Shown: piece after piece, positions 57,435 to 62,653 of the stretch
Layout of the letters: each line of letters begins with the position of its first letter
Position numbering within the stretch: position 1 is the stretch's first letter
Origin: Mobula hypostoma
Taxonomy: Eukaryota
Direction of reading: 5' to 3'
NCBI RefSeq assembly: GCF_963921235.1
Contig: NC_086097.1
Location: 94,366,001 to 94,430,000 of the forward strand
Length of the DNA stretch: 64,000 bases
Made by a program: the position numbers and the translations under genes
Notes under the pieces: model-generated
What the model saw: the letters and a program-made list of their open reading frames with translations, nothing else
What the model was told of the DNA's origin: nothing
The model's database searches: none

Positions 57435-58144
57435 CTATAACAAAAAGCAGAACAAGAAAGAAGGGAATGTCATTGTTGTTTTGTAAGTTCCAAAACATTC
57501 AACTAATTAGAAGAAATTCATGGGACCAGGAATGCGAGGCTAACTTCGCGTTTCACTTTCAGCGAGGCACGTGCTCATGGTGCGCCATGACGTGTGCAGT
57601 TCATGTATTTTTACATACAATCCATAATGGATTATTGAAACCAACAAGAATGCTTAATCAAACTATATATTTACAATATTACTCATATGCTGCTGAAATA
57701 TTAAATACCAGGCAGGGTTTACATCTAACAACAACTTTTTTGTTGCTTTTGATTTCCAGATCGATTAAAATTAGTTCCAAAAAAATAAAATTCACACCTT
57801 GTTCATTTGGAAGGGGGATATTTCTGTTGCATTGAAGAGTACACGTCACAGTCTCCCCTCCTTAGCTATAAACCAACTCAATATAGAATGCATCTCAACA
57901 ATATACATAGTACACTATAAAATACAAATACTACAGACATCCACAACATAGTAAATTTTAATCGCTGTGGAGGATTTCTTACTCTTGAGGGATAATGTCT
58001 TTCGTGACAAAGGAGGTCACTCGGCTTGGGAGGCGAGACTTGTGACTGTGAAACAATCTCAGGTTCTGGGGCCTCCTCCATGTTAATTGTAGGAGCTGAC
58101 TCTGAGACTGCAGGAAATGGTTCTGATAGCTCAGGACACCTTTC

Positions 58145-58700
58145 TTTTTCATTTTTTCGCTTCCAGTTTGTGCATCTTGATCTTGGGAAGGCACATTTAA
58201 TTCACTGGAGTATTCTCTTATTAATCCCTCTCTTGCTGCTGTTATGATCTGATCTGTCCTCTTCATTTCCTTATCCACAACATCATCTGACAAATCCTCT
58301 GTTTTTGTATCTCCGTTGACTCCTTTCTTCTTGGTCTTCCATTCATCTAGCTGGGCTTTGGTTTTGCATCTACTTTGACAAGCAGCTTTTTGTCTCCCAC
58401 TTGAAGTTCATGCAATAACCTTAATGCACGCAGAGTCAATTCTGGTTCTTTATATTCACAAAAGCTGAATGCTACAATCATCCTGAAGCTCCTTGAATGC
58501 TTCCAACTGAAAACCAAGCCACATTTTGCAAATAACTGCCTGATTAACACATCAGAAGCTTTCTCAGTTACATTGCCTACAAAAACTGATTTTATCACTT
58601 TTATTCTTCTTCTGAACAGCATGGTCCTTCGTTAAGCTTTCCAACCAGAGGCGCAGAGGGTCGCACCGAGACCCATTTGCAGGGCTCTGTTGGGCCATAG
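58145..58700 (-). pseudogene. RBM25: Processed RBM25 fragment (RRM and following helix), frameshifted, inside the LTR element
   Basis: VFVGNVTEKASDVLIRQLFAKCGLVFSWK..FCEYKEPELTLRALRLLHELQVGDKKLLVKVDAK / TKAQLDEWKTKKK..EGLIREYSSELNVPSQ matches recalled RBM25. No introns. Confidence 0.92.
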
Positions 58701-58779
58701 TTTACGAGTACAGCATGAAGACAATTGTGGTATCATCCAGTACCTTTTAAAATTTGCTTCCAGTTGACTGCATTTGGAT

Positions 58780-59485
58780 AACACATACAAAAAATGCCGG
58801 TGAACGCAGCAGGCCAGGTAGCATCTCTAGGAAGAGGTACAGTCGACGTTTTGGGCCGAGACCCTTCGTCAGGACTAACTGAAAGAAGAGCAAGTAAGAG
58901 ACTTGAAAGTGGGAGGGGGAAGGGGAGATCCAAAATGATAGGAGAAGACAGGAGGGGGAGGGATGGAGCTAAGAGCTGGAAAGTTGATCGGCAAAAGGGA
59001 TACAAGGCTGGAGAAGGGAGAGGATCATGGGACGGGAGGCCTAGGGAGAAAGAAAGGGGGAGGGGAGTCCAGAGGAAGATGGAGAGCAGGCAAGGAGTTA
59101 TAGTGAGAGGAACAGAGAGAAAAAAAGAGAGGAACGGGGGGGGGGGATAATAAATAAATAAATAAGGGATGGGGTACGATGGGGAGGAGGGGCATTAACA
59201 GAAGTTAGAGAAGTCAATGTTCATGCCATCAGGCTGGAGGCCACCCAGACGGAATATAAGGTGTTGTTCCTCCAACCTGAGTGTGGCTTCATCTTGACAG
59301 CAGAGGAGGCCGTGGATTGACATATCAGAATGGGAATGGGATGCAGAATTAAAATATGTGGCCACTGGGAGATCCTGCTTTCTCTGGCGGGCAGAGTGTA
59401 GGTGTTCAGCAATGCGGTCTCCCAGCCTGCTTCGGGTCTGGCCAATATATAGAAGGCCACACCGGGAGCAGCAGACACAGTACAT
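58780..59485 (-). mobile_element. Penelope-like 3' fragment nested in the LTR element
   Basis: ORF YCVCCSRCGLLYIGQTRSRLGDRIAEH..QPDGMNIDF. Near-perfect TSD CTG(C/T)ATTTGGAT at 58768-58779 and 59486-59497. Hammerhead motif at 58840-58877 with GAAA changed to AAAA. Confidence 0.88.
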
Positions 59486-59860
59486 CTGTATTTGGATTTT
59501 CAGTTAGGTTGTAGTTGTCTCAGCCAATCATATCCCGCCAATGCTGGCCCCCCTGTTTTTGCCACATACAAGCCCAATATGGCTTGTTAGTTGTTGTATC
59601 TCACTGATACGAATGTCATTCCCACAGCAATTATCCTTTCTCCACTACAAGTTGTTATTTGGATATCTGCAGGCTTCAGTTTAGTATCTTTGAAATGCTG
59701 TTCAAACTAATTTTGTAGAATGAATGAAATAGCCAAGTCTGGGTCCAATTCCATTTTAATTAATATGCTGTTCACTTCTGGTGTAAGCCATATTGCCTGT
59801 CTATTGCTAGTGTTCACATTATAAATTTCAAGATTAACCCAGTCCTATTCATATCATCTA

Positions 59861-60409
59861 CAGACATCTCACCTCTCCTGGAAGTTCCAGGAGTCTCCCG
59901 CATATTAATAGTGGCTCCCTGATGCCCACAATTTATATACAATGTCACGGAAATTGATTTTTTTGAGAGTGAGCGAGCGAGAGAAAGAGTGTGAGAGCGA
60001 GAGAGAGCACGAGAGCAACCACGAGAGGGGGAGAGAGAGACAGCGAGTGAGTGCGCCATGGCAGAGTGTTCCAAAAAAGAAAATATAAAACATACATCAC
60101 CCCAGACTTCACTAAAGTGTACCTCTGCCTAATAGGGGTCAAAAATAATGACAGTGTTGCTCGCTGCACTGTTTGCAACAGTGACTTTTCTATTGCCCAT
60201 GGTGGGTTAAGACTGTAAAAGACATGTTGAGGTGAGTTTAACAGGTGTCATTCGTTCATTAGCATAGCTAACGTTATTTAAACTAGCTGGTCGGCTGCTA
60301 AGGAGCTACTCTATTGCAGACATCCCACCTCTCCCGGAAGTTCCAGGAGTCTCCTGCAAATTGATGGTGCTACCTCCCTGAAATGAGTTTTTGCAGGGTG
60401 GGATGTCTG
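59861..60409 (+). mobile_element. Non-autonomous hAT-like DNA transposon nested in the LTR element
   Basis: TIR CAGACATC(T/C)CACC...GGTGGGATGTCTG. Frameshifted BED-finger-like N-terminus (VARCTVCNSDFSIAHGG..CKRHVE) at about 60058-60230. No clean 8-bp TSD seen. Confidence 0.7.
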
Positions 60410-62653
60410 TCATTGGCATTTTCATCAACAGCATGCAGATTGGTGTTCTTTTTGAAACTGCAACTTGACTTTTTAGCTTTTCCTCTTCGCTGTGTGCCTG
60501 ACATGCTCTTACTTTGTTACATTTTCTGCAAGTTTCACCTTTAAACCTGCATTGGTGTGCTGTATGTGAGCCCCTGCCACAACGGTAACACAGTTTGTTT
60601 GGCCAGGCCAGTTTCTATTTAGATGTTGCAATTTTGTTCACCCTCACTTTCACTCCTGACTGCACCTCAATTGTGTCTCTGTCTGCTATTTCCATTGATA
60701 CAGCAAGTTCAATTGCTCTTTTAAATGCAAGTTGCACTTCCATTAGGAGCCATTTTTGAATGCTTCCTTGTAAGATTCCACAAACTAAATGATCTCTCAG
60801 TGTATCATTGAGCCCATCACTGAACTGACAATGATCAAACAATCTCTCCAATTCAGCCACATACACTGAAATGGACTCCACTTTCTTTTGATTCTGCTTA
60901 TGAAACCTAAAGTGTTCTGCATTCAACAATCATTTCGAACCTAAATATTCCTGTATTACTTTGATGCTATTAGCAAAACTTATTTCAGCTGATTTGGTAG
61001 GAGCAGTCAAACTTCTAAGCAAACTGTAAGCACTTCCACCCAATGCACTCAGCAAAACAGTTTTTCATTGGTTATTCCATTTGTTTTAAAATATTGCTCA
61101 ATTAGCTCAGTATACACGAGCCAGTTATCTCTGTGCAATAGAACGTGTCTATCCTTCCGATGTAGCTAGTAATTTTAGTTTTTTTAAATTTAGAATTATT
61201 ACCCAATACTCACTGTTCATGAACCCGTGAACTCTTCAACTCTCTGCCTTTTTTTTTTAAAAACTCTGTCATCTTTGGTGAAGAAAACACGCTGCTCTGA
61301 ATAAAAAAAATGTACAGCACTTTTCTTTTCAAATGACCCTTTTTTGCTGCTCTCTTTTTAATTTGAATATCTCACTGTGCTCCAGCAGGTAGGTAGTCGT
61401 CTTGAGTTCATTTTAAAACTAACTCATCACCACTGTTATGTTGTGTAAACTCCAAAACATTAAACTAATTAAAAGAAAGACACAGGACTGGGAATGCAAG
61501 ACTTTGTTCTTTTTTTTTACTTTAAGCAAGCCGCACGCTAATCACGTGGTAGCATCATAACGTGTGCAATTCAGGTATTTTTACATATCCCATAATGAAT
61601 TATTTAAGTGAACAAGTATGCTTCAAACAATATATTTACAATATTACTGAAATATTAAATACACAGTTGTGTTGACTCATCATTATGTAACGTCATTCAC
61701 TTATCACAACCTGCTCCACCCAATCCTGGACCACTCTGTATAATTCTATTTTTCCTTATGACAAAGGAGGCCATTCATCCATTGAGTCTATGCTGGCTCT
61801 CAGAGCAATGCCATCAATACCACTCCTCACTTATTTCCCTGTAACCAAGTTTCTCTGACATTTCCACCAATTCCATCATCCCACTTGGGCTACACGGCAC
61901 TGACTAATTAACCCACCAGCCAGCAAGAGGGGGGAAACTGGAGTACCCAGAAGAGATTCATGCAGTCAATCTCCACAGAATCCTCACCGACAGCGCCGAG
62001 GTCAGGATCACTGTATTGTTGACCAAGTGCTAACTCATTCAGGGTGCTGTTTGCAGAAAGATCATTCCTTGCACCATCCACTCTGTCATACTTTGTCCCA
62101 CTCTGATATTTTATGCTCGTCACTGTATTTATCAAGACATTTAATTTTAATTTTTGTACTGTTTATTCTGGGAATATCAGGCAAACATCATTCTGGTGTT
62201 TATGACATTAAATTAACCCGAATCTAGACTCCAGCACTTTCATACCATTCTTGTTGGGCTAACTCCTCTGTGTTTCCCGCTTTACATACCTTCCTTTAAA
62301 AGCAGTTCCCATCACCCCTAACTTCAAATCTACGAAAATCATTCCATAATCTACAGCTAATTAGAAGATGACAACCAATGCATCCACCATTTCCATGGCA
62401 ACCTCTGAGAACTCTGGGATGCAGGTCATCCAGCTCTCAGGATTTATTGGCTTTCAGTCCCATTAATTCCCCCAGCACTTTTCTATTTATGAAGACTAAT
62501 TTCCTTTCTTTACACAAGACTCCTGATCCACTACACAGGACAATGTGCTTGAGATTAACTCACCCTCTCATAGTTCTGAGCAGAATAGATGTGAGGCCCC
62601 ACACTGCAGTCCTCCCCACTGTCCCAGAGCCACCACTGCCATTTGAGCTCTGA

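Follow-up and report, generated by a model that had tools for sequence, protein, structure and literature searches.

A Ty3/Gypsy retrotransposon family of Mobula hypostoma carrying spliced RBM25 sequence

Host messenger RNA (mRNA) is known to become part of long terminal repeat (LTR) elements. LTR-mediated retrocopies, including further mobilisation, have been described by Tan et al. 2016 (PMC5131818) in flies, mosquito, zebrafish, chicken and mammals; old vertebrate LTR elements amplified together with captured host mRNA are represented by the crocodilian CrocERV29 (KIT-ligand) and CrocERV31 (nectin3) (PMC4299795); and maize Bs1 is an LTR retroelement with transduced pieces of host mRNA in a chimeric frame (review, PMC13317346). 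The element analysed here is comparable with all three. It lies on the minus strand of a 64,000-nucleotide (nt) stretch of Mobula hypostoma DNA (NC_086097.1, positions 94,366,001 to 94,430,000; the window, numbered from its first letter), at 57474..61665, and is a decayed Ty3/Gypsy element from which the reverse transcriptase (RT)-RNase H-integrase (IN) core is absent, with intronless RBM25 sequence in its place. We favour, at a probability of about 0.88, a non-autonomous Ty3/Gypsy family in which spliced RBM25 mRNA replaced the RT/RNase H/IN core through template switching and which was amplified with the enzymes of its relatives. RT would have switched onto co-packaged RBM25 mRNA and then back, at short shared stretches, and the chimera would have been mobilised in trans by enzymes of intact relatives. 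What argues for this reading is the combination of a spliced origin, microhomologies of 7 and 9 nt, one common 5' junction, the retained LTRs, primer-binding site (PBS) and polypurine tract (PPT), target duplications of 5 bp, relatives that carry RT and are equally old, and the occurrence of long, middle and short forms.

As in the 'pseudo-LTR retrotransposons' of Tan et al. (PMC5131818), a partial spliced mRNA replaces part of the internal open reading frame (ORF) and both LTRs are retained. The RBM25 family is an LTR-mediated retrocopy by its spliced mRNA, microsimilarity, lack of a poly(A) or duplication of its own, and remobilisation; it departs from the cases described there in being old, with an estimated 2,000 copies from one capture, a series of deletion forms and probable exchange with helpers. 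CrocERV29 and CrocERV31, as described in PMC4299795, are retroviral, number nine and six copies, keep pol and have ORFs under purifying selection, whereas the RBM25 family is Gypsy, has lost its pol core, is far more numerous and has revealed no selection. Bs1, as the review presents it (PMC13317346), drew on three donor genes in a plant and became a chimeric gene; the present family has one donor and no intact copy was found. The mechanism is already published for animals, and this, together with dead copies and no sign of function, limits the value of the case; what lifts it above routine is its scale, its readable history and the likely helper exchange. Our literature searches found no paper on the family; subscription journals, Repbase and Dfam lay outside them, so a library entry is possible.

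Parts of the window element and its Gypsy relatives

For comparison we used a full single-ORF polyprotein (P0121), retrieved with the protease (PR) stretch of a sister copy, whose Pfam order Gag-PR-RT-RNase H-IN is that of Gypsy. The arrangement read from the letters in an earlier note on this DNA (LTR, PBS, gag, protease remnant, RBM25 piece, integrase tail, PPT and LTR, in this order on the minus strand) was recovered in full, along with two later insertions:

61434..61665, minus: 5' LTR, ending ...TAACA, start eroded (the family LTR is 247 bp, TG...CA)
61422..61432, minus: PBS, decayed complement of the tRNA-Ser(GCT) 3' end
60471..61129, minus: gag (capsid region and CCHC knuckles) with stops and frameshifts; tblastn to P0121 amino acids (aa) 16-246, 56-59%
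59860..60410, strand unassigned: later insertion, like a miniature inverted-repeat transposable element, with inverted ends; other copies are without it, and it is foreign to the family
59493..59846, minus: aspartic protease remnant, P0121 aa 277-391, 46% (match span 59838-59482)
58780..59492, minus: later insertion, Penelope-like fragment, GIY-YIG below cut-off
58733..58779, minus: parent PR-RT linker (..KVLDD), by comparison with parent copies
58726..58732, minus: 5' switch point, 7-nt microhomology between parent and RBM25 exon 3, in frame
58170..58725, minus: RBM25 cDNA with RRM; exon 3 end, 48-nt cassette exon (from 58722), exons 4, 5, 6 and most of 7
58150..58169, minus: first ~20 nt of RBM25 exon 9, the remainder between two internal deletions
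58141..58149, minus: 3' switch point, remnant of a 9-nt microhomology between RBM25 exon 10 and the parent integrase tail
57957..58140, minus: integrase C-terminal tail, in a frame different from RBM25, matching the end of P0121
57851..57863, minus: PPT, preceding the 3' LTR
57474..57850 (upper end approximate), minus: 3' LTR with ~140 extra bases near its start and a CA end

The two LTRs are 82% identical (61665-61434 aligned with about 57850-57474), with a Kimura two-parameter (K2P) divergence of 0.20. The RRM_1 domain of the window copy scores above the Pfam cut-off, and its best relatives are RBM25 proteins, with a shark isoform first at 76% identity; zf-CCHC_5 in its gag falls below the cut-off, and the protease of sister copy L013 passes as RVP. 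The Penelope-like sequence recurs in RBM25 introns and at other loci and is missing from other family copies.

By domain order, LTR ends, PBS, PPT and target duplication, the element is a Ty3/Gypsy LTR retrotransposon, and its gag, protease and integrase tail match P0121, in agreement with the Gypsy flanks claimed earlier. Across 13 copies the LTRs begin with TG in 11 and end with CA in 11. The PBS complements tRNA-Ser(GCT) over 11 nt; 33 copies average 8.5/11 matches, with mismatches mostly at CpG positions. In its single ORF and two CCHC knuckles it may resemble the Mag clade of Ty3/Gypsy. Genome copies with the gag, PR and LTR of the window element map along P0121, one of them (L084) as far as aa 1256. 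Among the 30 best RT hits, nine have the window element's protease region, and eight of these also match its LTR (the exception is L088); the other 21 belong to another Gypsy family that is better preserved (L054, L056-L063 and others). The RT-bearing parent copies are decayed as much as the chimeras. In two RT-bearing copies, L086 (4699) and L090 (4728), the integrase has one and the same deletion, whose end coincides with the tail site of the RBM25 capture and suggests a switch hotspot; other internal deletions occur in L087, L089, L261 and L265.

Spliced origin and switch points of the RBM25 insert

The native RBM25 gene lies on the same contig as the window, 5.4 Mb off. It was located with a protein stretch, a Pfam PWI search having missed it, and exon numbers are our own count along the gene. 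The insert matches separate native exons that are kilobases apart and that abut without intron in nearly all of 59 copies, so that native exon junctions are indeed crossed, as had been proposed; a constant offset of -2 at one exon junction follows from the exon bounds as set in this analysis. In its longest form the insert comprises ~1,070 nt from nine RBM25 exons with eight exon junctions, extending over exons 8 and 9 and as far as exon 10, and the window copy is a shortened derivative with two internal deletions in this part. The earlier note had recognised ~550 bp of RBM25 as the RRM and a following helix; the gene was right, and the piece measures ~590 bp, in which the last part of exon 3 is followed by a 48-nt cassette exon and by exon 4 in full. 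The captured transcript contained this cassette exon (G000:C1:99832633-99832586) in frame, and 14 of 14 residues are identical in a shark RBM25 isoform (P0001), while the exon is missing from the bony-fish and frog RBM25 proteins viewed. In 79 copies identity averages 87% to the native exons and 90% (range 86-94%) to the commonest letter of each column; the commonest codons differ from present-day RBM25 at 23 silent and 5 replacement positions, three of the latter at a deletion joint. Two solo LTRs of the family stand near the native gene (G000:C1:99876648-99876890 and 99906403-99906635), upstream of its first located coding exon by ~35 and ~65 kb.

At the 5' switch, 7 nt are common to the parent and RBM25 exon 3, and the reading frames agree with that of the protease. 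Where the parent reads KVLDDATAVF the window copy reads KVLDDTTIVF, a peptide earlier taken as pol linker at about 58745-58715; the linker is there, but its last four residues are already RBM25, and the piece begins at 58732 and not at about 58715. A 5' junction made by splicing, as a BLAST match starting exactly at the cassette exon acceptor would have it, was discarded, for the insert holds a further 10 nt of exon 3. At the 3' switch, RBM25 exon 10 has 9 nt in common with the integrase tail of the parent, and the tail is then out of frame. The junction that had been placed near 58145 is real, although on its RBM25 side stands exon 10, reached via two internal deletions; an origin at the end of exon 7 is ruled out by the longer copies that run on into exon 10. 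Pairs of positions taken at random match over 7 and 9 nt with frequencies of 5e-4 and 3e-5, and Tan et al. (PMC5131818) likewise report microsimilarity at both switch points, with a median of 6 bp. The insert is without a poly(A) or target duplication of its own and shows microhomology to the parent at both ends instead, in keeping with the earlier suggestion of template switching. The longest capture replaces ~2.5 kb of pol (P0121 aa ~418-1255).

Copies, forms and age of the family

That the chimera belongs to an amplified family, as had been supposed, is evident from a junction-specific 20-mer with 208 exact hits on many contigs against 0 for a control. A DNA search returned 5,879 first-look candidates, and of 40 scored all cross the 3' junction and 35 start upstream of the 5' junction; a shark RBM25 query returned 5,555 candidates. 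The junction 20-mer is carried exactly by 7 of 59 copies chosen independently of it, which from 208 hits gives ~1,750 chimeric copies (about 900-4,200, binomial spread). By a second route, an upstream 20-mer shared with the parents has 703 hits, is exact in 6 of 59 copies and picked out 30 loci, 10 of them RBM25-type, 19 parent-type and 1 neither, from which ~2,300 copies follow. The copy number is accordingly estimated, by these two rough calculations, at ~2,000. With 509 hits for the parent-type junction against 208, the chimera makes up ~30% of the copies retaining the junction site. None of the findings named beforehand as refuting a chimeric family was made: the junction is not single-copy, the insert has no target-site duplication or poly(A) of its own, exon junctions are crossed, and the flanks are Gypsy.

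In 70 copies picked by pattern, we distinguish 29 short (the type in the window), 15 middle and 10 long forms with exon 8, besides 16 truncated or interrupted ones; short forms pass from exon 7 directly to the start of exon 9, and from there to exon 10. Of 72 copies examined, 13 had both ends located, and 7 of these have a 5-bp target duplication with at least 4/5 letters alike, compared with 1.9% of 156 mismatched pairs; a first such test had 7 usable copies only. Having their own duplications, the copies are separate integrations, and repeated rounds of mobilisation, another feature shared with cases of Tan et al. (PMC5131818), are seen here from the 208 identical junctions and these duplications, with the enzymes presumably supplied in trans. 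Median K2P divergence of the LTRs is 0.24 in chimeras (14 pairs) and 0.27 in parents (4 pairs); values of about 0.2-0.24 indicate an old amplification burst.

In Logan contigs, ~10,000 pieces from each of three differently labelled organisms (B, C, D) match the stretch and cover its RBM25 part as well. For B and D there are listed pieces that span the 3' junction, and one piece from B matches the 5' junction of the window copy with 4 differences; those listed for C cross RBM25 exon junctions, with no element junction among them. Judged by these sequence matches, all three organisms appear to carry the family.

Selection, helper exchange and alternative explanations

Rate ratios of replacement to silent changes were taken against the commonest letter of each column, CpG transitions excluded. 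Copies not picked by protein similarity gave 0.72 (0.62-0.87) for gag, 1.06 for protease and 1.02 (0.89-1.17) for RBM25; the values were 0.76 for gag and 1.08 for protease in 131 chimeras, and 0.92 and 1.03 in 42 parents. Selection on the RBM25 part is not seen by this test, itself weak. At protease site 226 the parent-like letter occurs in 11/12 long forms, 30/36 parents and 18/58 short forms, and such a distribution, parent-like letters in long forms and derived ones in middle and short forms, points to a long-first order. Long forms would have been shortened through slips in the purine-rich, RE/RD-coding stretch. The original frame relation to the tail is kept in 44/66 short, 9/19 middle and 5/11 long forms; triplet slippage accounts for its retention in the deletion forms, and it is not used as evidence.

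High-frequency derived letters of the middle and short forms are distributed unevenly, with 24 in ~723 sites of gag, 7 in ~371 of protease and 2 in ~562 of RBM25. In gag 13 of the 24 are silent (expected share 0.26, p 0.0026); both shared changes in the RBM25 part are replacements. Individual copies have a mosaic make-up, and the same derived letters stand in one of the RT-bearing copies (L293, 1 of 24 shown). A clonal lineage would alter unconstrained RBM25 sequence at least as fast as gag, and we infer that gag was imported from helper lineages: the excess of derived letters is likely best explained by recombination with helper elements, whereby later forms would have acquired gag and part of the protease from other lineages in shared particles, with RBM25 carried as a passenger.

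Several observations weigh against this account or parts of it. The parents' own protease, which must once have worked, also gives a ratio of 1.03, showing how weak the selection test is once a signal has been buried under the decay that follows insertion. The trees come close to stars and offer few clades with support, and there is little linkage over long distances (a strict linkage test was almost empty), so that the long-to-short order and the helper exchange draw on letter frequencies, for which the RBM25 baseline is 13 long copies only. The copy number is extrapolated from samples in which well-kept copies are over-represented. At the window copy no clean target-site duplication remains, with 3/5 letters alike. 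Its flanks (61670-61666 and 57473-57469) differ at two adjacent positions in the pattern of CpG decay on opposite strands, and may accordingly be an eroded 5-bp duplication.

With the same origin, the RBM25 part could have been useful: the element RNA may have been exported, stabilised or packaged better thanks to an in-frame Gag-PR-RRM protein or to the RNA stretch as such. We consider this unlikely, although such a product, envisaged in the earlier note, was encodable: protease runs into RBM25 in one frame in 149 of the 150 listed matches to the natural protease-RBM25 stretch, in a ranking that favours copies without frameshifts. Also in its favour, ~600 nt with the whole RRM are retained in short, middle and long forms whereas the 3' part is lost, a single lineage grew to about a third of the family, and the scarcity of shared changes in the RBM25 part could also mean constraint. 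Opposed to this are the ratio of 1.02, with both common derived changes being replacements, a first deletion that puts exon 9 out of frame, and the existence of plain deletion derivatives devoid of RBM25 (L086, L087, L089, L090). Furthermore, no intact fusion frame exists among 300 scored matches (150 + 150; longest open frames 381 and 436 aa), and no fusion protein appeared among the 150 best hits in a library of 1.84 billion representatives; one candidate (P0131) was rejected for want of Gypsy linkage. Highly improbable, in our judgement, is an origin at the DNA level, by which an RBM25 retrocopy made by a long interspersed nuclear element recombined with or inserted into a Gypsy element that was then amplified. 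Joins made by DNA repair, as is generally known, bear microhomology too, but here both ends lie within coding exons, far from the poly(A), neither a poly(A) nor a duplication belonging to the insert is found, and pol is replaced rather than interrupted; this pattern is the one described for template switching by Tan et al. (PMC5131818).

The family is of importance in indicating that one LTR-mediated gene capture is enough to found a major repeat family of a vertebrate, whose history can still be read in exact switch points, the packaged splice form with its cassette exon, stepwise shrinkage and likely helper exchange. Annotation, like the counting of retrocopies, will be misled by RBM25-like fragments in their thousands, and given such families, a count of this kind can stem from a single capture that an LTR element multiplied. 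Vertebrate retrocopy numbers have been linked to non-LTR elements in a preprint (bioRxiv 10.64898/2026.06.26.734816) that places SUDS3 among the top retrocopy parents in cartilaginous fishes and whose main text leaves RBM25 unmentioned. That the RBM25 stretch gave the element an edge, and that Gypsy elements of this lineage are a general gene-capture engine behind a large share of what passes for 'retrocopy' load in cartilaginous fishes, is a speculation we hold to be unlikely.

Two further observations concern insertions. Within L084 (600-934; also L123-L151) sits a young high-copy repeat with 95-97% identity and 9,339 candidates. In the window, an exon-like stretch with acceptor and donor sites (57434-57351, minus; it reads LEFENYHLKVTSRKQAEEIQALQEKIQ) starts 40 bp beyond the 3' LTR, and the element therefore seems to lie in sense orientation in a gene's intron, just upstream of the polypyrimidine tract.

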